A stretch of DNA of 64,000 nt, taken from sequence record MW349128.1; one strand, 5' to 3'. How positions within the stretch are numbered: position 1 is the stretch's first letter; every line of letters begins with the position of its first letter. The translations under genes and the position numbers were made by a program. Positions 814 through 59,498 of the stretch are shown here, one piece after another. The notes beneath the pieces are model-generated. The model did not search any database and had not been told where the DNA came from. It saw nothing but the letters and a program-made list of their open reading frames with translations. The stretch is from Staphylococcus phage Machias.

Positions 814-1282
814 ATGGGTCGTTTTATAAAATCAACATATTTGAATAAAAAAGAAACATCTAATAAAAAAGAGAAAGTAGTAATGGTTGTTAAGGAAGAA
901 GATGGAACTAAGAAACATATGGAAATAGTAGATCCTATGATGCATTATTATGTAACTAAAGATGAACATTGGTTACCACCTAATATAGTTGTAGGTTCTA
1001 TGGCTAAAGAAAAAGTTAGAACTGTACACTGTAAACATAAAGATGTTATTAAATCTATAGTTAGAGAAGCAGGTAATGCTCAAGATAAATCAGAATACGA
1101 TAGAATATTATCTTCAGGTAATTATGAAGAGTTTAGAAAATTAAAAGATTTTCATTTAATGAATAATGTTCATGGATCTGATATTAATATTGAAGATTAT
1201 AATATTAATGAGTATATCAAACAAAACTTAGATAGTAAAGTTGGAATTGATATATGTCTATTTGATATAGAGGTAGATGGAT
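814..1282 (+). CDS. family B DNA polymerase, exon 1 (N-terminal domain plus Exo I motif FDIEV)
   Basis: RBS AGGAGG at 797. ...ICLFDIEVDG ends at the proposed 5' splice site after T1282. The spliced junction reads DIEVDG-F-PEPGMAE, which parallels T4 gp43 DIEVTGDKFPDPMKAE. Confidence 0.65.
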
Positions 1283-2070
1283 CGCAAACAGTTGGGTTAA
1301 TTTAGGTAGCTCAATTAAAAAATTATTAATTGCTGAAAAGTTTAAAAATAATCAGCATCACTAATTTAGTGTTCAACGACTAAATATAATAATATAATTC
1401 AAATATACTTCCTTTATAAAAGGAGGAAAATAATGAAAGAAATATGGAAAGACATTAAAGATTTTGAAAATTACTATAAAATATCCAATACTGGTAAAGT
1501 TAAATCGGTTTCAAGATATGTATATAATGATTCTTTAAAAGGTAAAGATAAAAGAATGCTTATTAAAGAAAGAGTATTAAAAACAAGAATAAATAAAAAT
1601 GGTTATGAAGATGTTCAATTATATAGAAATAATAAGAAGCATACAAGAAGAATACACCGTTTAGTTGCAGAGAATTTTATCGAAAATAAAGATATTGATA
1701 AAAATGTAGTTAATCATATTGACGGTAATAAATTAAATAACAATTTATCTAATTTAGAATGGATGTCAGTATTAGAAAATAATTTACATGCTATAGAAAA
1801 TAATCTTCATAAAACTGATAAAATGGAAGAATCATTAAAAAAGAGAAGAAAACCAGTAGCACAAATAGATAAAGAAACAGATAAAATTATAAAAGAATAT
1901 GAAAGTGCTAAATTTGCAGCGGAAGAATTAAATATAGATAGAAAAGGAATACAAGCAGTTGCAAATGGTTATAGAAATAGTAAAACTTACAAAAATTTTA
2001 AATGGAAATATATTTGAATTTAAAAGATATAGTCTAATCTTTATACAATTGTATAAAGTTAATATAAATG
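1283..2070 (+). mobile_element. group I intron 1 of polB (about 788 nt) carrying an HNH ORF in the loop between the R and S elements
   Basis: P element TAATTGCTGAAAAG (1327), Q AATCAGCATC (1352), R GTTCAACGACTAAATAT (1373), S AGATATAGTCTAATCT (2028), terminal ...AATATAAATG with omega-G at 2070. The splice restores the frame (t + tc = TTC Phe). Confidence 0.65.
1433..2017 (+). CDS. intron-encoded HNH homing endonuclease (NUMOD4-like N-terminus plus HNH)
   Basis: Strong RBS AAAGGAGGAAAATAATG. N-terminal WKDIKDFENYYKISNTGKVKS motif. HNH core HRLVAENF...VNHIDGNKLNNNLSNLEW. Confidence 0.85.
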   Translation: MKEIWKDIKDFENYYKISNTGKVKSVSRYVYNDSLKGKDKRMLIKERVLKTRINKNGYEDVQLYRNNKKHTRRIHRLVAENFIENKDIDKNVVNHIDGNKLNNNLSNLEWMSVLENNLHAIENNLHKTDKMEESLKKRRKPVAQIDKETDKIIKEYESAKFAAEELNIDRKGIQAVANGYRNSKTYKNFKWKYI

Positions 2071-2360
2071 TCCCTGAACCAGGAATGGCTGAAATTAATA
2101 TTATAACTGTAGTTGATTGGAGTAAACGTAAATGTTTAACATTTGCATTAAAATATGATACAGATAATTATAATGAAGTTATGACAGATAAAACTAAATT
2201 AATGGAAGATCTAAATAATATTTATAATAATAAAGATAGCGAGATTGGAGAAGATTTAGGTTTAGAATTTGAAATATATGAATTAGATACTGAAATGGAA
2301 ATTATTAAATCATTCTTATACTATATTAATGAAATTAGTAAGCCTGATATATGTACGGCT
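2071..2360 (+). CDS. family B DNA polymerase, exon 2 (region between Exo I and Exo II)
   Basis: Open frame FPEPGMAEINIITVVD... up to ...PDICTA. Joins exon 3 to give ICTA-WNLDFDFATIF, an Exo II-like ITGWNxxxFDxxY context. Confidence 0.6.
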
Positions 2361-3447
2361 TGAGAAACACACTGGGTCGTGTAAAACCTTTTTAATTGCT
2401 GGAACGTCCTTATTGCTTAGTGAGCTACAACGTGACTGGTAACGGTGAGCGTGATATGCTTAAAAATCATTAAGATTGGATAATCAGCAGCGAAGACTCT
2501 ATAAATCCTTTTCAAGAAAGGATGATTAATATGAATTATAAACCGAAAAATAAAAAGAAAATAACCAATGAAGATTGGAAAGAAATTGTCAAAGAATTAG
2601 GTAATGATGAATATGAAGTATTAGGAGATTACCTGGGTACAAAAAACAAAATTGAAATGAAACATAAAATATGTGGAGAGACATTTTTTATGACACCAAA
2701 TAATTTTAAAATAAGTGAAAATCGTTGTCCTATCTGTTCTATAAAGAAAGTTTCAGAAAAACGTAGGAAGAAGACAAAGGAATTAAATGAAAAAATAAAA
2801 GAAGTTCTTGATGATTCTTATGAATTTAAATTGAACGGTAATGAAACTGTTCATAATAAAATAAAAGTAAAACATAAACAATGTGGAAACGAATACAGTG
2901 TTTTAATAAGACATATAATTTATGATAAAAATAAATGTAGTAAATGTCAAGATTTTGTTAATTCAAGAGATGAAAAAGAAATAAATAAATTCCTTATAGA
3001 AATGGGCGTAGATTTCGAAAGACAATATAAATTTGAAGATGACAAAGTAAAAAATCTTAGATTTGACTTTGCAGTTTTTAAAAATAACGAAATCAAACTT
3101 ATAGAATTTGATGGTGAATTTCATTTTAAAGAAAAATTTGGTGGACCAAAAGCATTTGAGAAAGTAGTATACAATGACTATCTCAAAAATAAATTTTGTT
3201 TTGACAATAACATAAAATTACTTAGAATACCTTATTGGGAAAGTAATAATAAAAAAGAAATAATAAAAAGGTTTATAGAGTAACGTTCAACGACTATCGA
3301 AAAGTGAGCATTATGTCGAGAGGACCTATTGCAATATAACTGAGTAGAGTACACTTTTAATTAAGTGGAAAAAGAAGGGTATGTAGAGTAACGTCTATAT
3401 ACAAGATATAGTCTATCTTTCAATAAAATATATTTTATTGAAATTTG
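2361..3447 (+). mobile_element. group I intron 2 of polB (about 1.09 kb) carrying an endonuclease ORF between the Q and R elements
   Basis: P-like TTTAATTGCTGG (2391), Q-like AATCAGCAGC (2478), R GTTCAACGACTA (3288), S AGATATAGTCTATCT (3405), 3' hairpin CAATAAAATAT/ATTTTATTG. The 5' part is near-identical to the intron in the beta gene at 32400-32578 (minus strand). Boundaries are accurate to a few nt. Confidence 0.55.
2522..3283 (+). CDS. intron-encoded homing endonuclease, two zinc-ribbon modules plus an EDxHD/Vsr-like (PD-(D/E)xK-type) nuclease domain
   Basis: HKICGETF...CPICS and HKQCGNEY...CSKCQ modules; C-terminal RFDFAVF...IEFDGEFHF (E-D-x-H pattern). The alternative ATG at 2531 has better SD spacing. 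Confidence 0.55.
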   Translation: MINMNYKPKNKKKITNEDWKEIVKELGNDEYEVLGDYLGTKNKIEMKHKICGETFFMTPNNFKISENRCPICSIKKVSEKRRKKTKELNEKIKEVLDDSYEFKLNGNETVHNKIKVKHKQCGNEYSVLIRHIIYDKNKCSKCQDFVNSRDEKEINKFLIEMGVDFERQYKFEDDKVKNLRFDFAVFKNNEIKLIEFDGEFHFKEKFGGPKAFEKVVYNDYLKNKFCFDNNIKLLRIPYWESNNKKEIIKRFIE

Positions 3448-4389
3448 TGGAATCTAGATTTTGACTTTGCAACTATATTTGAAAGAATTAAAGTTAATGG
3501 AGAAGATCCAGCTGATTATTTCTGTTCTAAAGATTTACAAGATAAAAAAGCTTATTATAGATTAGATAAAAACGCTACAGATGCAGCTAATAGATCATCT
3601 ACGTTCGAAACTAACTCATACACTAACTGGATTGACCAATTAGCTTTATATGCAAATGTAAATAAACCAAATGGTGTTATGGAATCAGTTAAGTTAAATG
3701 ATGTTGGTGAAAAAGAAACTGGTATTAAGAAAGATGTATATGAAGGATCTATCTCTGATTTACATTTTAGAGATTATTATACATTCATTCTTTATAACAT
3801 TAAAGATACTGTATTAACTGCTTTAATAGAAAAGAACACTAATATGTTTGATTTATTATTCTCTATTGTAGATATGACTAGAACTAGACCAAGTAAAGCA
3901 CTTAAGAAAACTATTTGTTTAAGAAATCGTAGTTCTGTCTTCTTTGAAAATCAAGGATATGTATTAAGTAATAATCACTCTAAAATACTATCTGATCCAA
4001 ATGCAGATAAAATACGTGGTGGATTTGTAGCTAATATGACATTAATAGAACGTATGGGTGATATTTTAGTTAAAGGTAGAGATATTAGATCTAATAGATT
4101 ATTTAGTAATGTTTGTGACTTTGACTTGAGTTCACTATATCCTTCTATTATTAGAGGATTTAATATAACACCTGAAGGGCATATAGGTAAAATTCAAATA
4201 CAAGATAAATCTACAATGACAGTTCCTAAGTATGAAGAAGACAAATTAAATTACGACTTTAATACTGAATTTATTAGTAAATTTAACAGTCAAGATAGTG
4301 TAGCATTTGCTCAAGAATTTCATGGTTTACCTCCATTGAATATTGCAGCTAAGAAAGTATCTGATAAAATAAAAAGTAAAGGAGCTTAA
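3448..4389 (+). CDS. family B DNA polymerase, exon 3 (Exo II/III region plus palm motif A DFDLSSLYPSII); gene ends without motifs B/C
   Basis: WNLDFDFA (Exo II-like) and CDFDLSSLYPSIIRGF (motif A, DxxSLYPS). Stop at 4387-4389; no KxxxNSxYG or YGDTDS downstream. Confidence 0.65.
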   Translation, partial: WNLDFDFATIFERIKVNGEDPADYFCSKDLQDKKAYYRLDKNATDAANRSSTFETNSYTNWIDQLALYANVNKPNGVMESVKLNDVGEKETGIKKDVYEGSISDLHFRDYYTFILYNIKDTVLTALIEKNTNMFDLLFSIVDMTRTRPSKALKKTICLRNRSSVFFENQGYVLSNNHSKILSDPNADKIRGGFVANMTLIERMGDILVKGRDIRSNRLFSNVCDFDLSSLYPSIIRGFNITPEGHIGKIQIQDKSTMTVPKYEEDKLNYDFNTEFISKFNSQDSVAFAQEFHGLPPLNIAAKKVSDKIKSKGA

Positions 4390-5203: not shown

Positions 5204-7687
5204 ATGAAATGGAATTTGGCTGAAGAAAATAATAAAATAAATAATTCTTTTAATAATTTAGATAAAGACATTATTAAAAGTTTAGATCCTGAAGAAAATC
5301 CTAAAATACTAGGAAATAGTATTAACGATTTTAATAAAAGATTACCTAATATAAGAAGAAAAACTAGTCATAGAGATGAAAATGGTGGAGATTTATTATC
5401 TTTAGGTGCTAAAGTTACTGCCAAAGAAATGAGTAACAGTAGAAAGAATAAAACTGTATCTAAAGATGAGAGACAAAACTTTGTTAATGATTTTATTAAA
5501 GAGAATATAGATGATCAAGATTTTAGTACTGAAGTAGCTAGAATATCTAGATATGACGATTATCGTATTATAGATAAATTTATACCAGAAATTTCTGCTA
5601 GTATAGATGTATTCTCAACTTCAATTATAGCTCCTGATGATACTAGTAAGTTATCATTAATGTATAGATATAAATCTGACATTAATGAAAATAATGAAGA
5701 GAATAGAAAAGTTAAAAGAGAATTAGATCGTATTGTAGAAAAATACGATTTAAATAAATTAATATATCCTTCAGTAAGAGAAGGACTAATGTTAGGTGAT
5801 CTTTTCTATATTATTAAAGATACTAGAAAAGATTTTGAAGAAATACTTACTGAGAACGATGATGTTTTAGGTAGAGAAAGTTCTTCTGTTGATGATGCTA
5901 AAGTTATTAATGAATCATTTTTAGATGAAGAAATTAATAATGAAGACTTGGATATTTTGCTTAAGGAATTAAATAATCATATTGATGAAGGATCAATATA
6001 TAAAGATGAAAAGAATGTTAAATTACAAAAAGAAAATTTTAAAAATGAGATTCTTAAGAGTATTAATGAAAATGTAGAATTCTTTAAAAATTCTTCTGAA
6101 TTGCTTTCTGATGTTGGTAAATATAAAGGATCAAATGACCTTCAATCTTTCTTAGATAAAGCTCAAGGAAGTAACAGAGATAAAAAGATTAAAAGTGGAA
6201 CTACATACTTCCGTAATGTAAATCCTGAAGATATGATTAAATTAGAAGTTGATGGTTTATGTATTGGTTATCTTTATATTGAACCTGATTCTGGTACTGA
6301 TATTAGAGGAGGAGCAAATCCTTTATTAAGTGCTATGAACGGTATTATGGGAGATGGATATCAAAAACAATCCCAAATGGGTTCTATGCCAAATGGAATG
6401 GGAATAACTAATTTAGATCCTGTTACAGGTAATTCAGCTACAGGAGGAACAACTACTAATTCTAAAAATCCAAATGCTGGAATGAATGCTACATCAGGTT
6501 CTTACTTTGAAAATGGTAATACATTGATGGCTTATCAAGGTCTTGTAGACGTAATGGTTAAAGGTATCGCTCAAAAAATCGATATGGATTTTGTAAATAA
6601 AAATGATTCTTTTAAAGATGTTATATATCGTTTAATACGTAAAAATTATATTATTGAAAATGGTATTAAATTGACATACTTAGAACCTGAAGAAGTTGTA
6701 CATCATAAACTTGATAGTCAAAAGACATATGGAGTTTCAAGATTATATAAATCATTATTCTTTGCTAAATTATATTTAAGTACATTAATTACTACTATGA
6801 TGGTTAAAATAAATCAGTCAAGAGACAGACGTGTATTTAGAGTTAAATCTGGATTAGATGATGATTATGAAGGTACTGTAGAAGAAGTTATCCGTAATGT
6901 AAGATCTAGTGAAATGTCTTCTGGTATGTTTGGAGATGGAACATCAGTTCAAACAATGTTTAACCAAGTAGGTAATTTAGAGAACATGTACATTCCTGAG
7001 AATAAAGATGGTAATACACCTTTAGAAATAGATACCATTTCAGGTATTCAAATTGATATTAATGATGAATTCTTAGAATGGCTTAAGAAATCCGTTATTT
7101 CAGGTACAGGAGTACCTTTAAATTATATTGATTCTGAAGCTGAAACTGATTATGCAAGATCATTAGCAATGCAAAATAATGGATTTGTAAGAAAAGTAGT
7201 TAACTATCAAAATTCATTTGGAGATTTCTTTACTAAAGTATTAAGACGTTTATATTATTTAGAAAATAAAGAAACTAATAATGACAAAGATTATGAAGAA
7301 CTATTAGGAACTGTATCAGAAATAGAAGCATATTTCCCACCACCAGTATTTTTAAATTTAGGTAATTTAAATGAAGAAGTTGGTGCAGTAACACAAATGT
7401 TAGATTTCTTAGTTCCTTTATATACTCCAGAAACTGAAGACGAGACTGAAAATGATAAACTTAAGAGATTATTTAGGAAAGAATTAGTAACACAAGAATT
7501 TATGTCTAATTTATCTTATGATAGATTTGAAAATATTATTGAAAATGTTAAAAAAGATATAGAAAAAGATAATAAAGAAGATGAATTATCGAAAAAATCT
7601 GGCGATGATTCATTTGGTTCTGATGACAATGCAGGCGATGATTCATTTGGTTCTGATGATAATTCAGATGATAATAGTGATTTTTAA
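5204..7687 (+). CDS. hypothetical large protein (827 aa) with Gly/Asn/Thr-rich low-complexity segment and acidic DDSFGSDDN repeat tail
   Basis: RBS AAAAGGAG; long ORF; internal GANPLLSAMNGIMGDGYQKQSQMGSMPNGMG... low-complexity region; C-terminal DDSFGSDDNAGDDSFGSDDNSDDNSDF. Confidence 0.5.
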   Translation: MKWNLAEENNKINNSFNNLDKDIIKSLDPEENPKILGNSINDFNKRLPNIRRKTSHRDENGGDLLSLGAKVTAKEMSNSRKNKTVSKDERQNFVNDFIKENIDDQDFSTEVARISRYDDYRIIDKFIPEISASIDVFSTSIIAPDDTSKLSLMYRYKSDINENNEENRKVKRELDRIVEKYDLNKLIYPSVREGLMLGDLFYIIKDTRKDFEEILTENDDVLGRESSSVDDAKVINESFLDEEINNEDLDILLKELNNHIDEGSIYKDEKNVKLQKENFKNEILKSINENVEFFKNSSELLSDVGKYKGSNDLQSFLDKAQGSNRDKKIKSGTTYFRNVNPEDMIKLEVDGLCIGYLYIEPDSGTDIRGGANPLLSAMNGIMGDGYQKQSQMGSMPNGMGITNLDPVTGNSATGGTTTNSKNPNAGMNATSGSYFENGNTLMAYQGLVDVMVKGIAQKIDMDFVNKNDSFKDVIYRLIRKNYIIENGIKLTYLEPEEVVHHKLDSQKTYGVSRLYKSLFFAKLYLSTLITTMMVKINQSRDRRVFRVKSGLDDDYEGTVEEVIRNVRSSEMSSGMFGDGTSVQTMFNQVGNLENMYIPENKDGNTPLEIDTISGIQIDINDEFLEWLKKSVISGTGVPLNYIDSEAETDYARSLAMQNNGFVRKVVNYQNSFGDFFTKVLRRLYYLENKETNNDKDYEELLGTVSEIEAYFPPPVFLNLGNLNEEVGAVTQMLDFLVPLYTPETEDETENDKLKRLFRKELVTQEFMSNLSYDRFENIIENVKKDIEKDNKEDELSKKSGDDSFGSDDNAGDDSFGSDDNSDDNSDF

Positions 7688-28339: not shown

Positions 28340-29383
28340 TTAGTTTAAAAAGAATTCTTCATTCAATTTATTTTCTAATTCTTCTACCACTTTATCATCT
28401 TCATCAATTTTAGGTTTTTTATCGGGAGCTTTCTTAAAGATAGAAATAAATTTATTTCCATTACTTTGAGCCCATTTTTGTGCTTCTTTGAAACGGTCTG
28501 CAACTATTCCAATAGGTATTCTTCTAATTTTATCTTTACCTTTATATTTAATAGGTACCTCTAAAGCGGCATTTTTACCACCAGTACGTTTGGCTACAAC
28601 TACAGCATTACCTGAATCAATTCTAATGCCTTTACTTTTAGCTTTTATTTTAAAATTCATACAAGCTTTAGCAAAATCCGCTTCAAGAGTATCAGGTTCA
28701 ACAATTCCTTCTTGAACTGCAACATCGGAAGTGTTACCACATTCTTCGCATACTAATTGACCTGATTCATTTGGAGACATTTTAGACCCACATTCTTCAC
28801 AAATAGGTTCTTCTTTATCAGTATCAATATCACGATTTAATTCTTCATTTAATTTTTTCTTACTATTTTTCAATTTTTCTTTATATTCTTTAAGCTTTCT
28901 TTTTTTCTCTTTTCTATCTTTAGTATTTCTAATATCCTCAATATCTTTTTGAAGTTCTAGTTTTAATTTATCTTTCTTAATTCTACTTTCAGCAGCTTTT
29001 TTAGCTTCATCTGAAGGTTTCATTTTTTTAAGTTCAGGGAATACAGATGATTTATTTCTATTCATTAAGCTTTCATATTGTCCGCCAGATGCAATATTTC
29101 TATTAACTCTAATTACAGCAAAGTCTCTTTCTGTGTTTTCTCCACTAACTAGGTTTTTACATTTTACTTCTAAGTTTATATTAACTCCCGCATAAACAAA
29201 TTTACTAGGTTGAAAGTTAGCATAACCTTGTTTAGTTAATCTATCAATTCCTTTTTGATATTGATTTATAATAACGCCTTTTAAATCATTAAAAAGGTTT
29301 TGTTCTGGGTTTTCATTAACTAATCCAAATTCTTTATCTAAAGATTCTTCTAAAGATTTTAAATTCATATTTAATTTCCTCAT
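28340..29383 (-). CDS. zinc-ribbon protein (CEECGSKMSPNESGQLVCEECG), hypothetical; immediately downstream of the RNAP beta-like gene
   Basis: CxxC...CxxC motif shared with the 23360..25276 ORF; basic, K-rich middle; C-terminal ...EELENKLNEEFFLN. Confidence 0.5.
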   Translation of the reverse strand: MRKLNMNLKSLEESLDKEFGLVNENPEQNLFNDLKGVIINQYQKGIDRLTKQGYANFQPSKFVYAGVNINLEVKCKNLVSGENTERDFAVIRVNRNIASGGQYESLMNRNKSSVFPELKKMKPSDEAKKAAESRIKKDKLKLELQKDIEDIRNTKDRKEKKRKLKEYKEKLKNSKKKLNEELNRDIDTDKEEPICEECGSKMSPNESGQLVCEECGNTSDVAVQEGIVEPDTLEADFAKACMNFKIKAKSKGIRIDSGNAVVVAKRTGGKNAALEVPIKYKGKDKIRRIPIGIVADRFKEAQKWAQSNGNKFISIFKKAPDKKPKIDEDDKVVEELENKLNEEFFLN

Positions 29384-29422
29384 TTCTTTAATATTTATAA
29401 TAATATTGTGTTAAATAATAAT

Positions 29423-29451
29423 ATCCCAATGATCAATATAATCATTGGGAT
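29423..29451 (-). terminator. terminator, hairpin family variant (ATCCCAATGAT...ATCATTGGGAT)
   Basis: 11-bp perfect stem directly after the stop (29459) of the beta-like gene. Confidence 0.5.
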
Positions 29452-29458
29452 ATGTGAA

Positions 29459-32400
29459 TTAAATCATATCTTTTACTTTACGTTTTAATTCTATTAAAGC
29501 TTTATTTGTGAATAGCATCATATAAATATCAACTGTCATACGAGAGACAATACTTAATGGAGAGAATACAGCTTCGATTTCCTCATCAGGTCTATATTCC
29601 GCATAAGGAGATTCATTTGGAGGAGTTACATCAGCAACTACAGTTTTACAAGCTCCATAGAAACTAATTTTATCTCCAACACTCATATCATCTTCATACT
29701 CAGTGAAGATTTCAATAAGAACTCCATCAACTTTTTCTCCTTTAATTTTCTCTGTATTAATTTTATCAACTGCAGCGATATCTACATCAATACCAGGTAA
29801 AGTTTCTTTATTATTTTTAATTCCAGATTTATACTCTTTATATTTATCATTTGATTTTTTAATGTAATTATTAACTAATTTAGCTAAACTATCAGTCATA
29901 TTTTCAATATCATCATTATAATAAATATTAATCTTTTTAATATTACCTGTATATTTACTTCTAACAGCTCGGTTAGCTATATCTTGAATATCTTGTTCAA
30001 ATTCACTACCAATTTTATCTAATAAAGAACCAATACCTTCTTCATCGAATGAAGTTTCAAATATCATTAAAGGATCTCCTGTACGTACTTTCTGACCTTC
30101 TTTAACTATATATTGAATATTTGTGTTTGATGGAATATTTACTGTTTTCTTCATAGTAACTTTAGTAGACATTGCTTCAGACATACTACTAGAAATAATA
30201 GAACTATCTTCATAAGTCATTTATATTAGCTATTATATTTTTATAATAGATTAGACTATATCAAATTCATTAGTATTAATGAATAATCATATTTAGTCGT
30301 TGAACTCTATAAATGTAGAGATGCTGATTAATTTAATATTTCTCAGCAATTAATAATTTTTTGACATTACATTACTATAATGAAAGGCATTTATAATACC
30401 ATATGAGCTAGCTACAGATACTTTAGATAATTTACCTGAAGTGAATTGAATATCATTATTTTTACCAGATCCAGCAAAGAAATTATTATTTTTAGCAAGT
30501 ATTTGACCTTTATTAAAAGTGTCATCTACATTAAATTGTGGATCAAGTTTATTAGATTGATAAAAACCTGAGTTAGAGTTTTTGGCTAATTTTTCAGATA
30601 TATCAACAATATCTTTTTCACCATTGATATATTCCACTGTCATTAAACCAGTTTTCTCGTTAATTTTTAATACTTTACCATCTTGTTTAGCTTTAAAAGC
30701 AAATGTATCTGATAATTGATAAGCTAAAGATTTATCAACACCAGATCCAACTAATGGTTTACTATTAGTTTTTGTTGGAATTACGTGCTTGGCTTGAGTC
30801 AGATTATCTTAATACACTTTGTTTATTGTGTATTAGTTCTTAATGAACTTCTTTAAAATAAATTAAAGCTGAGACTATATCAAATACCATTTAGGTATAA
30901 TCTTATTTAGTCGTTGAACAATTTGATTGATGCTGATTAATTTAATTATTATTTTCTCAGCAATTAAAGATTTTTCTATTATTATATTACTATAATAAAG
31001 GGCATTCATATACCAGTCATTCCTATACGTGGACTATCTGCATGTTTTGAGCTGAATGGGTTGAGCAATTCTAATGGAGTGTATAGAGATGTATCACTCG
31101 CATCTTTCTTACCGCCATCTGTATAACCTCTAGTGGATTTAATTAGTGAATCATATGAAAGCTGTCTGACCACTCCTCAAATATCTTCAATAATGGGCGT
31201 TAACCATTACCAGTTCTCTTATGAACTTCTTTAGGATTTCCCTAAAAGTTGAGACTATATCAAATACCATCAATTAATGGTATAGTTCTTTTTCCACTCA
31301 CTTGAGTGTACTCTACTTCATCAAATATATCTTTGAAATAATTTTTATTAAAATCAGTGTAATAATCTTTTTCATTTAATATTTTTTTATTTCTTATAAT
31401 GAGTATATTTGATTTTTCGATAGTCGTTGAACTATTTAAAATATCATGAAAGTTATCTAAAAAGAAATTGATATTATTTTTATTTATACGAATTAAAGTT
31501 AAATTATTTTTTAAACAAAAGTCATTTTTTATGTGGTCTTTTAGTGCATTTTCTTTGACATTTTCTAATTTTTGATATTTAGAATTATTTCTATACTTAA
31601 AATGTTGAACCCCATCAAATTCCAAAAGTATATTTTCGTTATTTAATGTAAATAAGAAATCAAATCTAAATCTATTAGTATTTTTAGAATAATAAAAATC
31701 ATTAAAAGACTTTTCTCTTTCATAATTTATATTATTTTCATCAAAGAATTTTCTAATTGATATTTCACCATTAGACTTAATAGCACAAATAGGACATCTG
31801 TGCCCTGCACTTACAAAACTGTTTGCACGCATCTCAAATACTTTACCACACTTATGATGTAATATTTTCATTTTAGTGAATAGATTAGTATATGTTTGTC
31901 CATCAATAAGAGAGTATTCATTTTTGCCTAAATATTCTATTTCTTTTTTAAAACTTTCAATTGTTCTTTTTTTTATATTTAGAACATTTAGGACACTTCT
32001 TATAATATAACAAATTATTTGGAGTGGATTTAAATGTTTCATTGCATAGTGTATGTCTAAAATTTATTTTTATTTTACTCCCTTTATATCTTTCTAAAGG
32101 TATAAACAAATCATAGATATTCTCATTTTTTAAACTATAAATAAAATCTTCATGATTTTTATTTATACCGCCTACACATTTGACACATTTATTTTTTCCT
32201 TCAAACATTTGTTTAGGTTTTCGTTTAAATTTAAAACCACAATTATGTTTTAAATTTATTTCAGTATCATAGTCTACGTATTCTTCATAAAAAATTTCGT
32301 ATTCTTTAAATTTCTCATAATTATCATTTACTTTCTTTTTAAAACTTTCTTTATCAATTTTTCTCACATTATCACCCCAGATTATAATAAAATTATGTTA

Positions 32401-35400
32401 AAGGGGAATGTGATAAAAATAATATTTTAAACAGCTGCTGATTGTCCAATCTTAATGATTTTTAAGCATATCACGCTTACTGTTGCCAGTTACGTTGTAG
32501 CTCATTAAGCTCTAAGGATCTCCCAGCAATTAAGAACTTTTCGACATTACATCACTGTAATGAAGGGCAGTATTATTTACCTTGTTTGAGTCAGGCGTGC
32601 TTATTCCTAATACACCTTGCATACTTTCACTGTATGAACGAATATCAGGTTCATATGATTGTTCATTATTACGTCCAGCAGGACCTTTAAATGTAACAGA
32701 AGTCATCTTATCAATCTCTAAAGATGGATTAAGATCAGATACTTCATCTACAGTAGGTTGTTCCATTATAGTTTTGATTAATTGGTCTTGCTTAACAGAA
32801 ATATTCTTAGGATTCTTATTATTGTAAGAGTCTGAATATTCTTTATATGCGTTTGCAATCATTTTATATATTAAAGCATTAACTTGTTCTGGACCACGTA
32901 CACGATATATTCCCATGTCATTGTGTTCTCTAGCAGTTACATCTTCTAGCATAGTATTAGCTAAGAGTAATAATTCCACCATAGTTTCCGGTAATTTTAA
33001 ATCTCTTAATACATCTTCTGTAATTGGATCCATTGCTAAATCTAATGCATTTTTAATTCCTTTACCAACATTACGACTATAGAATTTATCATTAAAGTAT
33101 TCTAAGTAAGGTGTCTCACTATTAAATTCTTCAAAGTCATATTGTGAAGTAGGAATAGTATTTAATCCTGATAATAATAAATCATATCTTAATTTATCTG
33201 TTGAATAAATAAGATAACCATCTTGGAATTTAATTTTATTCTTCTTATCTTTAATAGTTATTCTTTCATTTTCTTTAACAAACTTATAATCAACTTCATA
33301 GAGATCAAGAATACTAGTTAAACCTTTATAGAAACCTAATAACACTATTGTAGGGATTAATTTATTAGTAATTTTAACACGAGAGAATGCCATTGTTTTA
33401 CTAGCTTGAATATTTTTACTGAATTTTTTATCTATTAGACTAAAATCAATATTATCTTCAAGTTGTTCAATAATATAATCTGTGATATTAATATTCATAG
33501 ATTCTATATTACTTTTAGTAGCTTTAAAAATAATAGATTCTGTAGTATTTGATAATATTAATTTAGATTTGTTTGAATTATAACCGATAGGATAGTATTT
33601 ATCTTTATCGTAATCAATCTCACTTAAAGTTTTACTTTCTGAAATAACTTTTTTAAGATTTCTTTGATTAAAATCAATTATCAAATCATCTTTAGAGAAT
33701 CTTAATATATTTTTAGATAAATTATTATACAACACAGAAGTTAAATATTCTTTATTAATTAAAGATGAATTACCTTTTTGAATACTAATATCATTTTTAT
33801 CTTTAATGTATTCTAGTACTTGTTTATCTTCAATAACTTTTTTAAGCCATTCAGTTTCAGAATTTTCTTTGCTACCAAATTTTTCAATGATGAATTTATT
33901 ATAGTTAGTTGTAATCCAAACTGTATCCGGTCTATATTTAACAATAGGATACATCATTAATTGTTTAGTTAGTACCTTTTTACCACCATTTAATTTTAAA
34001 TATTTACCATCAATAATTTTAGGTACATCAAATTTTACATTATGATTAATCCCATCAGGACTCTTAAATTGAACTTTTACAGTATTCTTTAATGATTGAG
34101 AATCTGAATTATCTTCTACATTCATTTTGCTAATGAATACAGGTATTTCTTCATTATCATTAAAACTCTTCATAATATTTACAAAGTCTTTATTAAATGT
34201 CTTTTTCATATAAGATAAGTCAAAATCATTCGAAGATACATTGTTAATTGCTTCATCATTAATACTATTAACATTTTCATTAATTTCTCTATCAATAACA
34301 TTATCTTCAGAAAAACTAAAATCTTCTAATTTTTCAAGATATTCATCTTGATTTTTAGCTAATGATAATATCTTTTTAGAATTCTTTAATGCAGTGTCTC
34401 CAATATATGATTTATTTTTAATATCTCTTTTAATTGATTTAAATGAATCATTCTTATCAAGTACATCATTATATAATGTATCTTCATCAATATCAATAAG
34501 ATCATTATTATCATTTAATTCTTTTTCAATTATCATTGCAATATTGTATTCATCATTAATATCCATATCAATATTATCATTAGATTTAATATATCTTAAT
34601 GTATCATCTATTTTCTTAGATATTTTTTCCATCTTAGAATCTTCAATGTCTTGATTAATTTCATCTTTATCATTATCTTGTAATTCAACTGGATCAATAT
34701 CTTTAACATTATTAAATGATTTCTTTTTAATAGTTGAATCTATAGCTTCTGTATTATCATCATCTTCAACATTAGAAATTTCATCTGTATCCATTTGTTG
34801 AGTATTTAAATCAATAGCTCTTCTTAATCTTTGTCTTAATCTATTATTCAATTTATTATAATCTTTAAAATCAAATTTAAACATTATACCGTTCTCAATA
34901 GAAACAAATAAAGCTACTACATTTTGATTTTCTTTGTGAGGTAATTCTTCCTGATTCTTAATCATCATAAATAAACTTGACATAAAATCTTTTGTATTTG
35001 GTCTAATAGCTTCTTGAGAAGATTTATTGTATCCATCTACATTAATTACATATAATAAATTTTCATATTCTTCTGGATTATTTAAATTATTATAAGTATT
35101 TTTAATTGAATCTAATACAGTTTTAAAATTCTTAGTCATTAACGATTTATTTTCAAGATTGATAAATTTACTTGAATCAACTATATAATTTCTACCTTTA
35201 AATAATTTCTCATTTCTTTCTACTCTATAAGATTTAATTGATTTACTTTTAATTTCTTGTTGATAATCTGAAATATTAGTAATTAATCTTGATTTTCTAT
35301 TTGTTGTTCTATATATTCTAGGAGTATAAATATTCTTGAAATTTTGATAATATAATATACCACTATTTAAGAATTCTATAAATGAATTTTCTTTAAAACC

Positions 35401-35517
35401 TTTATAAATTATTAATTGGTTTTTCTTTTGATCCTTAATATTTTCATCTATAGCTTTAATCTTATATCCTGAAATTGAATAGAATTTTAAATTCTTTAAT
35501 CTATTAAGATACTTCAC
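29459..35517 (-). CDS. multisubunit RNA polymerase beta-like subunit. Proposed exons (minus strand) 35517..32579, 31177..31012, 30799..30398, 30217..29459, interrupted by three group I introns.
   Basis: GTG start with AAAGGA RBS. ...FKGPAGRNNEQSYEPDIRSYSESMQGVLGISTPDSNKV | GVVRQLSY... parallels RpoB GPGGL...[39 protein letters not shown] parallels NPLGVPSRMNIGQ. VDD...AGSGKNNDIQF...ASSYG parallels the C-terminal VDDK...GGQRFGEMEVW..EAYGAAY. The proposed junctions give 4266 nt (1422 codons) in one frame. Confidence 0.65.
30218..30397 (-). mobile_element. ORF-less minimal group I intron (about 180 nt) in the beta-like gene
   Basis: P TTAATTGCTGAGAA, Q AATCAGCATC, R GTTCAACGACTAAATAT, S TTGATATAGTCTAATCT, terminal ...AATATAAATG whose ATG is picked up by the ORF tracker as the start of 29459..30220. 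The 5' end follows ...SSYG ggt. Confidence 0.55.
30800..31011 (-). mobile_element. ORF-less minimal group I intron (about 212 nt) in the beta-like gene
   Basis: 5' end ggt|ATATGAATGCCCTTTATTATAGTAAT is identical to the first intron of the second beta-prime gene. P/Q/R/S elements present. 3' end ...TAATCTG|ACTCAAGCC. Confidence 0.55.
31178..32578 (-). mobile_element. group I intron (about 1.4 kb) in the beta-like gene carrying a frameshifted homing-endonuclease gene
   Basis: 5' part (read on the minus strand from 32578) TTAATTGCTGGGAGATCCTTAGAGCTTAATGAGCTACAACGTAACTGGCAACAGTAAGCGTGATATGCTTAAAAATCATTAAGATTGGACAATCAGCAGC is near-identical to polB intron 2. S-like TTTGATATAGTCTCAACTTT lies at the 3' side. 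Confidence 0.5.
31260..32367 (-). pseudogene. intron-encoded EDxHD-type homing endonuclease split into two overlapping ORFs in different frames (31957..32367 and 31260..32042)
   Basis: The upstream ORF has two Zn modules (HNCGFKF...CVKCV; LCNETF...CPKCS). The downstream ORF has a third module (HHKCGKVF...CPICA) plus RFRFDFLF...LLEFDGVQHF. The frames differ (coordinates mod 3 = 0 versus 2). Confidence 0.45.
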
Positions 35518-35833
35518 TTATTATTCAATTCCTTTCATTTAATAAATTTTATATATGTACTTGTTTTCTTTATCTTTTTTATGTAATTTAAGGAGAAATA
35601 ATTTATTAGATTTTGATATAATCAAAATCTAAATATACCCCCTCTAATATTATATTTTTTATATATTAAAATATTTTATATTTTAATATATTATAATAAT
35701 TATATTATTATATAAATATAATATTCCGGAGGTTTTCAAATTTTTTACGAGATATTTTTATAAATTACAAAAATATAAAATTGATGATAACATTCAAATA
35801 TTACAAATAATATATGAAAGAAGTGAAACTAAA

Positions 35834-37387
35834 TTGGTTAATATGATTTATGATAAAAAAGATTTATCTGAGAAAGAAGTATCAACTTTATTAAGTATAA
35901 AAAAAGAAGATATTACTCTTGATAAACTTAAAGAATTATTTGCATTTAGACAAAATACACAACCAATGTTTAACCCTAGCGATAGATTTAAACTTAAAAA
36001 AGATTTAGTTTATAATAGTAAAGATGAGAGAACAACAGTTGGAAGATATATATTTAATAAATTTATATTAGACAATAAAATAGGACCTATTATAGGATAT
36101 ATGAATAAAGATATGGGAGGATCAGGTGTAGGAAATCTACAATCTGAACTATCTAGTTTATTACTTAATGATGTTATTACAACTAAAGATATGAATATGT
36201 ATATTGATAAACTTCAATGGCTCGGTTTCTCCATAGCAGGATTTATTAATTCTAGCTTAACAACTACAATGATGGTTGCTCCCGATAAAGTTAAACAAAA
36301 GAAAGAAGAATTACTAGAGAAATATGGTAAAGCATTAAATACTCCTGGTGAAGAATTGAATGCTATTAGTGCTATTGAAAAAGAATTAATTAAGTTAAGT
36401 AAGGAAGAATTAGAAGGTTTAGCAGATCTTGATATTTATGATAGTGGATCAAGAGGTAGTTTTGGAAATAACTTCAAGTTAACAGCTCTTATTCGTGGAG
36501 CAAATAAAAACTTTGCTGATCCTAGTAAAATACGTATTGCTAAGAGTTCTTTAGCTGATGGAATTGATCCAGAAGAATTATATATGTTTGGTGATATTAT
36601 GACAGCTGGTTCAGCTGGACGTGCTTTAGGTATATGAATGCCCTTTATTATAGTAATATAATAATAGAAAAATTATTAATTGCTGAGAAGATATAAACTT
36701 AATCAGCATCAATCAGAATGATTGTTCAACGACTAAATATAATTAAACTCATAAAGAGTTTTTGATATAGTCTGATCTATATTAAATTAATATAGATTAA
36801 CATAAATGACTCAAGAAGGTGGGTAAATTAGATGCTCACAATAAATTCTATTAATTGCTAGAATGTTAAAACTAACTAGCATCAACTTTATTAAGTTGTT
36901 CAACGACTAAATATAGAAATGATTAAATTCATAAGATATAGTCTAATCTATAATAAAATATAGATAATAAAATGATCAAGCTAAAAAACTTATGTCCGCT
37001 TTCCAAACAACTGTATTAGATAAACAAGGTTCTGATTGTAGAACAAAACATACATTAAAATTAACATTAACTAAAGATAATGCGAGTCTTTTATTATATA
37101 GATATTTTGAAGATACTTCAGGAAGAAAAGGTCAATTAATACTATTAACGCCTGAAAATGTGGATGAACACATGGGTAAAGTATTGAACTTCAGAAGTCC
37201 TATGTATTGTGCAAGTGAAGATATTTGTAGTAAATGTGCAGGAGAACTCCCTTACAAACTAGGTATAGAAAATATTGGACTATTGGTTAACCAAGTGGCT
37301 CAAGCAATTGTAACAAGCTCCATGAAGTCTTTCCATGATATGACAATTAAACAAAATGAAATAGATATCGAAGATTATATTTATTAA
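35834..37387 (+). CDS. second multisubunit RNA polymerase beta-prime C-terminal-like subunit; proposed exons 35834..36631, 36809..36824 (16-nt micro-exon), 36975..37387
   Basis: ...MTAGSAGRALG + TQEGG(Y) + QAKKLMSAFQTTVLDKQGSDCRTKHT parallels beta-prime [95 protein letters not shown] parallels region G. The exon lengths 798+16+413 = 1227 nt are in frame. Confidence 0.65.
36632..36808 (+). mobile_element. ORF-less minimal group I intron A (177 nt) in the second beta-prime gene
   Basis: ATATGAATGCCCTTTATTATAG..., P TTAATTGCTGAGAAG, Q AATCAGCATC, R GTTCAACGACTAAATAT, S TTGATATAGTCTGATCT, ends CATAAATG. Confidence 0.55.
36825..36974 (+). mobile_element. ORF-less minimal group I intron B (150 nt) in the second beta-prime gene
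   Basis: AAATTAGATGCTCACAATAAATTCTA..., P TTAATTGCTAGAATG, Q AACTAGCATC (compensatory GCUAG/CUAGC versus GCUGA/UCAGC), R GTTCAACGACTAAATAT, S AAGATATAGTCTAATCT, ends ATAAAATG (omega-G 36974). Confidence 0.5.
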
Positions 37388-37434
37388 AAGCGTAATATAT
37401 TGAAATATAAACATATATTATAATAATGAAGAAA

Positions 37435-37504
37435 GTTTATCTAGCTCAGTTGGTAGAGCAATGATTTTCATCATGTGTCCGGGGTTCGATCCCTCGGATA
37501 AGCT
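37435..37504 (+). tRNA. tRNA-like gene with a 4-nt anticodon loop (probable tRNA pseudogene/degenerate tRNA)
   Basis: Acceptor GTTTATC/GATAAGC, D arm GCTC-AGTTGGTA-GAGC, T arm CGGGG-TTCGATC-CCTCG, variable GTGTC. The anticodon stem ATGAT/ATCAT encloses only TTTC. Confidence 0.35.
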
Positions 37505-37857
37505 TTTTTTGGTCTAAAATTCTTATTTATTAAAAAATTTTATTTAAAAATATTAATTAACTATATAGTATAAATCTATAATGATCCTCGTCAAATTATT
37601 ATAGATTTTTTTTTTAGTTTTTGATTTAACTAAAAAATATAATAGATTAAATTCTATTATAACTTACTTTGTCGTTTGTTGTTGCTTTAAAAATGTTCCT
37701 TTGATTTCTTGTTTCTATTTTTAATATGTCATGGTTTTAAATAGAAATCCATACGCCTCCTTACGTATAATTAAAAATGAATAGATATTATTATATATTT
37801 ATTTACTTAAAAGAGTGCATAGATGATAAATGTACTCTTTTATTTTTTTTTTATTAA

Positions 37858-37936: not shown

Positions 37937-38039
37937 GTTCCTATAGCTCAATGGTCAGAGCGTACGGATTTCATGAATTATACCTGGATAGGATAATTTA
38001 TGGATCTGTAGGTTATGAGTTCGAATCTCATTAGGAACA
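37937..38039 (+). tRNA. tRNA-like gene (103 nt) with canonical acceptor/D/T arms and a 38-nt anticodon loop; reads as tRNA-Glu(TTC) carrying a 31-nt insertion at the canonical 37/38 intron position
   Basis: Acceptor GTTCCTA/TAGGAAC, D arm GCTC-AATGGTCA-GAGC, T arm ATGAG-TTCGAAT-CTCAT, anticodon stem TACGG/CTGTA (one G-U). The loop ATTTCA + 31 nt + T contains its own AATTAT/ATAATT hairpin. Confidence 0.4.
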
Positions 38040-58355: not shown

Positions 58356-59498
58356 ATGGATGTAGAAATAATTGAAAGAATAATAAATTCTAAAAAATTA
58401 AATTACAATAAAATGACGGAATTGGTTAGACCTTATATAGAGGGAGGAAGATTTAGAGGAAATACTAATAATAATAATGTAACCATTTATATAGACATTA
58501 ATAACGTTATTAAGCAATTATATTCACCTCAAGTTTCAGAGAATTTTACTCATTTAAAAACTAAAAATAGATTGAATTTAGTTGTTGAATTAGTAAATAT
58601 TATAGGACATTATAGACATTTCTTTGCAAGTAGATTAAATATGCATTCTAGATTCTTTTTATTCTATTCAGATAAAGAATCAATATATCACACTTCAGTT
58701 GATCCTGATTATAAAAAAGAATATTACAAGAAAATGAATGAAGATAATATAACTTATAGAGATATAAATAAGACTATATCAATAACATTAGAATTAGTTA
58801 AAACAATCGTAAAGTATATACCTAATGCATATTATATTGATACTTATAAAATAGAACCTACTATATTACCTTATTATATTATGGAAAAAACAACTATAGA
58901 TAATGAAAATGATTATTCTTTAATTGTAAGTAATGATAAAATATATAGACAATTATTAGATTATAAAGATAGACTACTACTTTTAGAATTAAGAGGATCT
59001 GAGAAGAGTAAAGTTATTTCCAAAGAAAATATAAAAGGAGAAATATTTAGTTCTAGCACAAAGAAAGATATTAATGATTTTATGAATATTGATTCTGGGA
59101 TCATAGATATTTTTAACTTATTTTCAGATCATAAGGATCAAGAATACAAATCTATATCTGGATATGGACCAGTAACTACAATTAAACTATTAGATAGAAT
59201 GATAGAAGATACAAAATTATCTCCTTTAAAAGAATATAATAATGAAACACTGTTAAGAGATACTTTTAAAGATTATTTAAAAGAAGAAAAATTAGAAGAG
59301 TTAATCAAACGCTTTAAGTTATTTGATCAAAAACACATTGTTGATGAAATTGATGGAAGTAAGATACAAAATATTTTATCTTCTCAAATAATAGATTTTA
59401 ATGACCCTTTAGAAATAAAAAGACTTAATGATGAATTATTTATAAATTCATTTATAAATATAGATTATTTATTTGAAGGAGAAATTAATAGAAACTAA
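58356..59498 (+). CDS. hypothetical protein (380 aa)
   Basis: RBS GAAAGGATG; no motifs. Confidence 0.5.
   Translation: MDVEIIERIINSKKLNYNKMTELVRPYIEGGRFRGNTNNNNVTIYIDINNVIKQLYSPQVSENFTHLKTKNRLNLVVELVNIIGHYRHFFASRLNMHSRFFLFYSDKESIYHTSVDPDYKKEYYKKMNEDNITYRDINKTISITLELVKTIVKYIPNAYYIDTYKIEPTILPYYIMEKTTIDNENDYSLIVSNDKIYRQLLDYKDRLLLLELRGSEKSKVISKENIKGEIFSSSTKKDINDFMNIDSGIIDIFNLFSDHKDQEYKSISGYGPVTTIKLLDRMIEDTKLSPLKEYNNETLLRDTFKDYLKEEKLEELIKRFKLFDQKHIVDEIDGSKIQNILSSQIIDFNDPLEIKRLNDELFINSFINIDYLFEGEINRN

Follow-up and report, generated by a model that had tools for sequence, protein, structure and literature searches.

Three Putative Group I Introns, Two of Them Miniature, in a Virion RNA Polymerase Beta-Like Gene of Staphylococcus Phage Machias

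Exon Structure of the Interrupted Gene

The DNA analyzed in this study is a 64-kilobase (kb) stretch of Staphylococcus phage Machias (accession number MW349128.1), referred to as the window, and all coordinates are positions in it. On its minus strand, the region 29459..35517 appears to represent one gene, encoding a beta-like (N-terminal/middle) subunit of a virion-packaged multisubunit RNA polymerase (RNAP) and interrupted by three putative group I introns inserted at conserved catalytic-centre motifs. As deduced from the sequence, the primary transcript is very probably spliced by the standard group I pathway, which would give an mRNA for a single subunit of 1421 amino acids (aa). An original prediction made from the DNA letters had proposed a structure of four exons and three group I introns with an RpoB-like product, and this proposal is supported by intron-less alleles in related phages, by covariation in the ribozyme core, by Rfam alignments (sub-threshold), and by a profile match to RpoB.

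Joining the four minus-strand exons (2939 + 166 + 402 + 759 nucleotides (nt)) resulted in 4266 nt, corresponding to 1421 aa and a single terminal stop. Exon 1 (32579..35517, 2939 nt) begins with a GTG start at 35517, which is also the position of the annotated start of the coding sequence (CDS) in the phages S6, Madawaska, and AH12. It is colinear with S6 and ends in ..ACAAGGT, with the T at 32579 representing the U at position −1. Intron 1 (31178..32578, 1401 nt), a large-type group I intron, separates it from exon 2 (31012..31177, 166 nt), which begins with V^GVVRQLSY, the caret marking the junction. Intron 2 (30800..31011, 212 nt) and intron 3 (30218..30397, 180 nt), both being small group I introns devoid of an open reading frame (ORF), flank exon 3 (30398..30799, 402 nt; TQAKHVIPT...VASSYG). 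Exon 4 (29459..30217, 759 nt including the stop; TYEDSSIIS...SPLSIVSRMTVD...) holds FEDS-like and RMN-like RpoB motifs. The U at −1 and the intron-end G that had been postulated were seen at all three introns, since a T closes each upstream exon (32579, 31012, and 30398) and a G closes each intron (31178, 30800, and 30218). Likewise, the apparent start codon of the ORF 29459..30220 proved to be the intron end, its ATG being the final three bases of intron 3 (..aaATG^ACTTATGAA).

Compared to the uninterrupted 1417-aa orthologue of S6, the spliced product featured 1144 identities in 1421 positions and was free of gaps at and around all junctions, alignment gaps being confined to an acidic N-terminal stretch. 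The CDS at this locus is uninterrupted in S6, DC4, and SA1, which represent empty sites, and excision restores the same reading register. The junctions are also flush with S6 on the DNA level (AAGGT^AGGAGTG versus AAAGT AGGTATA for junction 1, ACTGGT^ACTCAAG versus ACAGGT ACCCAAG for junction 2, and TATGGT^ACTTATG versus TATGGC ACGTACG for junction 3). The boundaries are unambiguous, because a shift of a junction by one base would violate the U(−1)/terminal-G rule. As judged from this alignment, the colinearity with S6 is far beyond chance and is restored by this register alone. All exon and intron coordinates of the original prediction were thus exact, as indicated by the 4266-nt frame and the gap-free alignment across the three junctions.

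The predicted junction-spanning peptides of the spliced product are ..STPDSNKVGVVR.., ..IGMTGTQAK.., and ..VSVASSYGTYEDSS... They had been regarded as reconstituted RpoB motifs, which holds for the RpoB-like character of the product. However, junction 2 does not correspond to the motif RMNIGQ (NPLGVPSRMNIGQ), as had been suggested, but to another RpoB motif. The RMNIGQ-like motif (SPLSIVSRMTVD) is located approximately 360 aa past junction 2, near the C-terminus, in exon 4.

The Encoded RNA Polymerase Subunit

The region is ~97% identical to the Staphylococcus jumbo phages AH12 and PB50 and ~82% identical to S6, Madawaska, MarsHill, PALS_2, DC4, and LY01, and the source phage is an AR9-like Staphylococcus jumbo phage. 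Homologues were found by tblastn in 248 jumbo-phage records, many of them labelled as RNA polymerase beta subunit. Searching the PDB with the single spliced sequence (phmmer) resulted in weak matches to bacterial RpoB chains (E = 8e-6) in three colinear stretches. With a profile built from nine orthologues spanning all three junctions, the anticipated RpoB similarity was clearly detected, Thermus RpoB being matched with E = 5e-23 and the AR9 non-virion RNAP (nvRNAP) chain 7s00_C with E = 1e-10. Furthermore, counterparts of the RpoB motifs ETPEG..G, HDDANR..MQRQAVP, NFEDS, and GDK...NPLG.PSRMN are present and colinear.

According to these comparisons, the gene is an orthologue of AR9 g189, PBS1 gp80/gp78, phiKZ gp178, and PhiPA3 gp211/gp209, the latter pair being related to phiKZ gp178 in GenBank notes. 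AR9_g189 is annotated as 'beta subunit, N-terminus; virion RNAP subunit', and UFVDC4_00067, the uninterrupted orthologue of DC4, was detected in virions by liquid chromatography–mass spectrometry (PMC10638138). From this orthology, we infer that the Machias protein is packaged in the virion, belonging to the virion RNAP (vRNAP) and not to the nvRNAP set.

In E. coli numbering, which we take to be approximately I569^G570, A683^N684, and Y810^N811 for the three insertion sites, the introns would presumably be located within or beside rifampicin clusters II and III and the E813/D814 metal-binding motif. Mobile introns usually target invariant sequences of essential genes (reviewed in PMC12908238), and the location of the insertion sites at conserved catalytic motifs fits this usual targeting.

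Ribozyme Features of the Inserts

Each insert holds the group I core motifs TAATTGCTG...TCAGC...TTCAACGACTA...GATATAGTC. To describe the core of the small introns, 13 family members from five sites, four originating from the window and nine from Madawaska, AH12, PB50, and LY01, were aligned by sequence alone (MAFFT). All 13 introns share the parse P3-UAAUU-P4-P5-P4'-AU-P6-UUCAAC-GACUA-AAU-P3'-P8-nnGAUA-UAGUC-P9...G (P, paired region) and end with the terminal G (omega-G). In the P3/P4/P7/P8 core, 98.8% of the alignment cells were found to be paired, compared to 25–46% when one strand was slid by one to three columns. Changes on both sides occurred in 11 of the 20 core pairs, including five of six in P3 and all four in P8, and the observed covariation score was reached by none of 500 shuffles. 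P7 is invariant and hence uninformative for covariation, but it agrees with the Rfam consensus. The joining regions with their helices, J6/7-P7 ('UUCAACGACUAAAU') and J8/7-P7' ('GAUAUAGUC'), are likewise invariant in all members and agree with 'GUUCAaAGACUAAA' and 'AAGAUAUAGUCu' of the Rfam RF00028 consensus. The P6 and P8 hairpins are present in every member, with mean stem lengths of 5.0 base pairs (bp) versus 0.6 in shuffled sequence and 6.2 versus 1.9 bp, respectively. RNAalifold independently recovered P4, P7, and P8. Because this program cannot represent the P3/P7 pseudoknot, pairs were counted on the stated structure.

Regarding the 5' splice site, the exon GGU of introns 1–3 can pair with a GCC located 9–16 nt inside the intron, extended by one to three intron pairs and including the U.G wobble. 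Family members at other sites feature 6-bp P1 helices, and at one of these sites (site 2a, see below), the guide covaries with the exon (GCGGAU/GUUCGC in Madawaska and LY01 versus GCCGAU/GUCGGC in AH12 and PB50). In intron 2, the helices comprise P1 (GGU^AU/AUGCC), P2, P3 (AAUCUU/AAGAUU), P4 (GCUGA/UCAGC), P6 (CAAU/AUUG), P7, and P8 (AUACC/GGUAU), followed by three 3' hairpins like those of intron 1. Intron 3 features P1 (GGU^AUU/AAUGCC), P2 (CAUUAU/GUAAUG), P3 (AAUUAU/AUGAUU), P4, P6 (CUCUA/UAGAG), P7, P8 (AUUCAUUA/UAAUGAAU), and P9. The guanine–cytosine (GC) content of the miniature introns ranges between 0.22 and 0.24.

When an 851-nt stretch was aligned to the Rfam model RF00028 (Intron_gpI), intron 2 scored 25.1 bits (E = 3.8e-4) and intron 3 15.9 bits (E = 0.23), both over model positions 1–253 and on the right strand. 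Intron 1 cannot be scored by RF00028, its core being split by a 1.1-kb ORF. A covariance model of the small-intron core constructed in this study assigned 98.6 bits to intron 2 and 87.2 bits to intron 3; it does not pick up the large-type introns.

The large intron 1 comprises P1-P2, P3 (AGUUCU/AGAACU), P4, an extended P5 domain, P7 (GACUA/UAGUC), P8 (AUACCAU/AUGGUAU), and a 3' domain of three hairpins. Its P6 is a long-range helix of 13 bp (~32434–32422 with 31444–31432), the strands of which are approximately 1 kb apart and enclose the ORF. As deduced from the sequence, the insert between P7 and P3' resembles P7.1/P7.2 of subgroup IA. P3, P6, and P8 differ in sequence between intron 1, an intron at 2361–3447 in the window, and the PALS_2 intron, yet stay complementary. 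The P4-P5 domain of intron 1 (32436–32531, minus strand, 96 nt) is 83–88% identical to segments in Staphylococcus siphophages (phages of Staphylococcus epidermidis and coagulase-negative (CoN) staphylococci with genomes of ~86–93 kb) and in the Alicyclobacillus phage KKP_3916, where these segments are unannotated or annotated as 'hypothetical protein'. This similarity suggests that those genomes contain related group I introns that have escaped annotation.

The ORF enclosed by P6 represents a homing-endonuclease gene (31260..32367, minus strand) that is split by a frameshift into the ORFs 32367..31957 and 32042..31260. The reading frame continues through P6', P7, P3', and P8, with the stop in J8/7. 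The two ORFs match adjoining parts of phrog_559 (121–246 and 247–437), the E-values for this family being 1e-34 and 6e-17. Matches to phrog_9084, labelled 'homing endonuclease', and phrog_7140, labelled 'intron encoded nuclease', were also obtained. Pfam gave a weak treble-clef zinc-finger match, no nuclease domain was recognised in the gene by Pfam or NCBIfam, and NCBIfam returned nothing for any intron ORF. The frameshift is located in an A8 run (31974–31967); without one of these A residues, the two ORFs merge into a frame of 368 aa that is colinear with the ORF of the PALS_2 intron (E = 2e-41). The frameshift could be due to decay, sequencing error, or slippage, and in view of this frameshift the activity of the intron-1 endonuclease appears doubtful.

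Intron Distribution among Related Phages

Six insertion sites, given here in spliced-CDS coordinates of the window, were identified in nine relatives. The site at 1593/1594 is occupied in LY01; site 1 (2939/2940) in the window and LY01; site 2a (HAD^SPR) in Madawaska, LY01, AH12, and PB50; site 2b (3105/3106) in the window, AH12, and LY01; site 2c (RIGM) in PALS_2 and MarsHill; and site 3 (3507/3508) in the window, AH12, PB50, and LY01. In total, alleles with 0, 1, 2, 3, and 5 introns were found, with the six sites lying within ~1.9 kb. The combination of sites 1, 2b, and 3 that characterizes the window was present in no other record searched.

Intron 1 is absent from AH12 and PB50, although these are ~97% identical, and from S6, DC4, and SA1; at the same site, LY01 has a 180-nt ORF-less intron. 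The site of intron 2 is empty in S6, DC4, SA1, PB50, and Madawaska. Intron 3 is 100% identical in AH12 and is absent in S6, DC4, SA1, Madawaska, MarsHill, and PALS_2.

Sites 2a, 2b, and 2c represent three insertion points within 24 nt of a conserved motif. In AH12 (3929–3952) and LY01 (5696–5719), the introns at 2a and 2b are parted by a micro-exon of 24 nt, encoding SPRIGMTG. LY01 also features an additional insertion of ~1650 nt in the same vRNAP beta gene (CDS 1593/1594, LY01 stretch ~2213–3862), in which a small group I core is followed by a 400-aa TnpB ORF (HTH_OrfB_IS605, OrfB_IS605, Cas12f1-like TNB). This IStron-like chimera of a group I intron and an IS605-family element in a phage RNAP gene is not found in the window.

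Splicing Model and Alternative Explanations

In the proposed mechanism, each intron would fold into a group I core, in which P1 presents the 5' splice site with its U.G wobble, accompanied by P4-P6, P8, and the pseudoknot of P3 with P7. Two guanosine-initiated transesterifications would then excise each intron and join the four exons to the 4266-nt mRNA. Intron 1 would represent the mobile type, with its homing-endonuclease gene in the P6 loop disrupted by the homopolymer frameshift. Introns 2 and 3 would belong to a multicopy family of miniature introns devoid of an ORF, the transfer of which between co-infecting phages presumably took place by recombination, with the help of trans-acting endonucleases, or occasionally by reverse splicing into sites matching a short guide.

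Splicing, autocatalysis, and intron movement are aspects that we infer from sequence, and several observations weigh against this model. No group I intron was reported by Rfam at the gathering score in the whole 64-kb window, nor at E ≤ 10 in the range 29000–36000, and the scores of 25.1 and 15.9 bits are both below the RF00028 gathering score of 50. The 13 aligned introns are related, so part of the covariation counts is inherited and not independent. The P5 stems of the small introns are 3 bp long and no better than in shuffled sequence, the exon part of P1 in introns 1–3 comprises only 3 bp (GGU/GCC), and no convincing P10 was found in these three introns. Finally, when the single spliced sequence was searched with Pfam, neither RNA_pol_Rpb2 nor any other RNAP family was matched at E ≤ 0.1. 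Since the AR9 orthologue is annotated with pfam00562 and the profile search was strongly positive, this missing match reflects divergence and not a lack of homology.

Introns so small may need a protein cofactor, and a related explanation is that the introns are removed in vivo, with those of 180–212 nt not being autonomous but depending on a phage or host protein or on unusual ionic conditions. The miniature introns are indeed devoid of peripheral stabilising domains (no extended P5 and no P7-P3' insert), and the short P5, the low GC content, the 3-bp exon part of P1, and the low Rfam scores point in the same direction. On the other hand, the P3/P7 pseudoknot, P4, P6, P8, J8/7, the P7 bulge, the terminal G, and the U.G wobble are all present, and the core covaries. 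Moreover, other compact bacterial group I introns self-splice. For the related AR9 introns, the mature mRNAs are said to have been determined experimentally (bioRxiv 10.1101/2020.12.14.422802). A dependence on such helpers was considered unlikely, albeit worth bearing in mind.

It is very improbable that the four ORF pieces are translated separately, or that the gene is a decaying pseudogene with the inserts being unspliced intron relics. Division of an RNAP subunit into several polypeptides occurs naturally in jumbo phages (PMC7598289), the annotations of AH12, PB50, and LY01 give the pieces as separate CDS, and the intron-1 endonuclease gene is already frameshifted. However, the 5' end of exon 3 is devoid of a start codon, and the sole 5' starts of exons 2 and 4 (GTG at 31173 and ATG at 30220) lie at or within intron 3' ends without a properly spaced ribosome-binding site. 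The exons are kept in one frame with ~80% protein identity to intact orthologues and gap-free junctions, while the ribozyme cores are intact and kept between strains with compensatory changes. A split is also unlikely to be tolerated at the breaks, which are inside invariant catalytic motifs. The orthologue is a virion protein required for early transcription (PMC10638138, PMC7598289). Separate fragments were rejected in view of the unusable starts and the position of the breaks. The probability that the inserts are elements of another kind, namely group II introns, inteins, or insertion-sequence elements or elements of the miniature inverted-repeat transposable element (MITE) type, appears to be negligible. 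AR9-like phages do have group II introns and inteins as well, and the gene of LY01 holds the TnpB-carrying insert. Nevertheless, inteins are ruled out by in-frame stops in the inserts, and group II introns by the lack of a reverse transcriptase and of any Rfam group II match in the scans of the 64-kb window and of 29000–36000. The boundaries show neither terminal inverted repeats nor target duplications, whereas the group I core and the boundary rules (U at −1 and terminal G) are present throughout. The interpretation as one gene with three spliced group I introns is the one retained in the following.

Possible Spread of the Miniature Introns

Motif and model searches resulted in seven group I introns in the window; an eighth GATATAGTC motif, at 58780 on the minus strand, lies antisense to a coding ORF and was rejected as a match by chance. 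In BLAST searches with intron 3, 26 places were found in AH12, 28 in LY01, and 18 in PB50. Two members of the family are located in the adjacent virion RNAP beta'-mid gene (35834–37387, plus strand), which carries two ORF-less group I introns in tandem: intron A (36632–36808, 177 nt) and intron B (36825–36974, 150 nt), parted by a micro-exon of 16 nt (36809–36824, ACTCAAGAAGGTGGGT). Intron B, the smallest family member seen, is without P2 and features a 6-bp P1. The joined beta' exons (1227 nt) are gap-free compared to the uninterrupted S6_1010, with 350 of 408 aa being identical.

The 5' ends of both small beta introns had been described as identical to that of beta' intron A. This applies to intron 2, the first 42 nt of which are identical and which shares the insertion context GGT^ACTCAAG, while the 5' end of intron 3 is similar at 42 of 50 positions. 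A recent spread of introns between RNAP genes had been deduced from this likeness. Related introns do reside in different RNAP genes, but a spread of whole introns is too strong a claim, as intron 2 and beta' intron A diverge in P3, P5, P6, P8, and the 3' domain. The two share a P1-P2 module and are not recent whole copies. Intron 2 itself looks mosaic, its 3' domain (30800–30880, minus strand, ..CUUUAAUUUAUUUUAAAG AAGUUCAUUAAGAAC ..) resembling that of the large intron 1 and being unlike the single P9 hairpin of the other small introns.

Tentatively, the small ORF-less introns (150–212 nt) may represent a burst of miniature, still self-splicing ribozymes with a MITE-like spread through essential genes of Staphylococcus jumbo phages, in which ectopic insertion by reverse splicing or borrowed endonucleases would have occurred at sites matching a very short guide. 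This possibility, which we do not consider the likelier one, is suggested by the occurrence of the 42-nt P1-P2 module in two unrelated genes at the same GGT^ACTCAAG target and by the micro-exons of 16–24 nt.

Relationship to Previously Described Introns

Intron-split vRNAP beta genes have already been described for AR9, PBS1, PhiPA3, and MarsHill-like phages. Lavysh and colleagues (2016) reportedly described the AR9 genome, including the N-terminal part of the virion RNAP beta subunit. The genes AR9 g189 and PBS1 gp80-gp78 are orthologous to the gene studied here, with ~50% identity over the C-terminal 480 aa. AR9 g189 is likewise intron-split, being annotated as a six-exon join, one intron of which carries g190, an HNH homing endonuclease. 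In AR9 and PBS1, one interruption coincides with site 1 (STPDS..^..VRQL) or lies no more than a few codons away, and another is located five codons 3' of site 2b. The 3' domains of the AR9 introns resemble intron 1. In contrast to Machias, AR9 has five introns; site 3 is unoccupied, and extra sites follow aa ~950 and ~1117. Its ORF-less introns span ~290–390 nt, as estimated from tblastn piece spacing, compared to 180–212 nt here, and its endonuclease is of the HNH-AP2 type, whereas that of Machias is of the phrog_559 zinc-finger type.

Korn and colleagues reported that RNAP subunit genes are disrupted by introns in this clade, with exon number and boundaries varying by strain, and used alignment to the AR9 protein to predict introns for MarsHill, Madawaska, and Machias (bioRxiv 10.1101/2020.12.14.422802). 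These predictions were based on protein alignment alone, without analysis of ribozyme structure. CPT_Madawaska_160 and CPT_MarsHill_161, representing the same gene in the same clade, are annotated as two-exon joins, each with one intron at another position (site 2a or 2c).

A more distant counterpart (~25% identity) is found in PhiPA3, where the homologous vRNAP beta gene of the phiKZ gp178 family is split by one endonuclease-carrying intron (gp211-[gp210]-gp209). PhiPA3 gp209 resumes at aa 1030 of the Machias protein (R-I/V-G), adjoining site 2a in the cluster 2a–2c. The gp210 endonuclease was shown to provide a competitive advantage versus an intron-less co-infecting phage (Birkholz et al. 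2024, Science; reviewed in PMC12908238). Unlike in PhiPA3 with its functional endonuclease, the endonuclease gene of Machias is frameshifted, and two of its three introns are ORF-less.

The introns studied belong to the same ribozyme class as the classical phage group I introns, such as those of T4 (td, nrdB, and sunY), SPO1/SP82, and the Staphylococcus phages Twort and K. They share with them the location in conserved motifs of essential genes, the optional endonuclease ORF in a peripheral loop, and the occurrence of intron-plus and intron-minus alleles among related phages. The copy number is far higher than in T4, which has three group I introns, reaching 18–28 BLAST places per genome in AH12, PB50, and LY01. 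Unlike the classical introns, the tandem introns of the window and its relatives leave micro-exons of 16–24 nt. The compact Azoarcus tRNA-Ile intron is usually quoted with ~205 nt, compared to sizes down to 150–180 nt here; a literature search for the smallest known group I intron gave no usable comparison for sizes of 150–212 nt. New in detail may be the size of the ORF-less introns (150–212 nt), their abundance, and the tandem introns with micro-exons.

Additional Features of the Window

Another gene on the plus strand (814–4389) apparently comprises three exons (814–1297, 2071–2360, and 3448–4389), the frames of which are consistent by arithmetic. The first insert (1298–2070) is a small-type intron with an HNH/NUMOD4 endonuclease ORF (1433–2017) between P7 and P7'. 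The second (2361–3447) is a large-type intron with a phrog_559 endonuclease ORF (2522–3283) and the P1 ACGGCU/GGUCGU. Furthermore, two unusual tRNAs were detected on the plus strand, namely an Rfam tRNA at 37937–38039 (54.7 bits) with a 34-nt insertion in the anticodon-loop region, which was not called by ARAGORN, and an ARAGORN tRNA at 37434–37505 with an abnormal two-base anticodon. Both may be intron-containing or otherwise atypical.

Significance of the Findings

For annotation, the results mean that the separate 'hypothetical proteins' and partial rpoB genes in AH12, PB50, LY01, and PALS_2 correspond to one virion RNAP subunit gene. None of the introns in the window is detected by Rfam at default thresholds, which may be the reason why a published Rfam scan of the related DC4 genome reported no introns at all. 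The very small, multicopy ORF-less introns would represent convenient minimal ribozymes for experiments, and if the burst considered above indeed took place, they would be among the smallest natural group I ribozymes. The well-resolved natural series of alleles extends an emerging view, according to which the catalytic motifs of virion RNAP genes in jumbo phages are targets of mobile introns and such introns may mediate competition between co-infecting phages.

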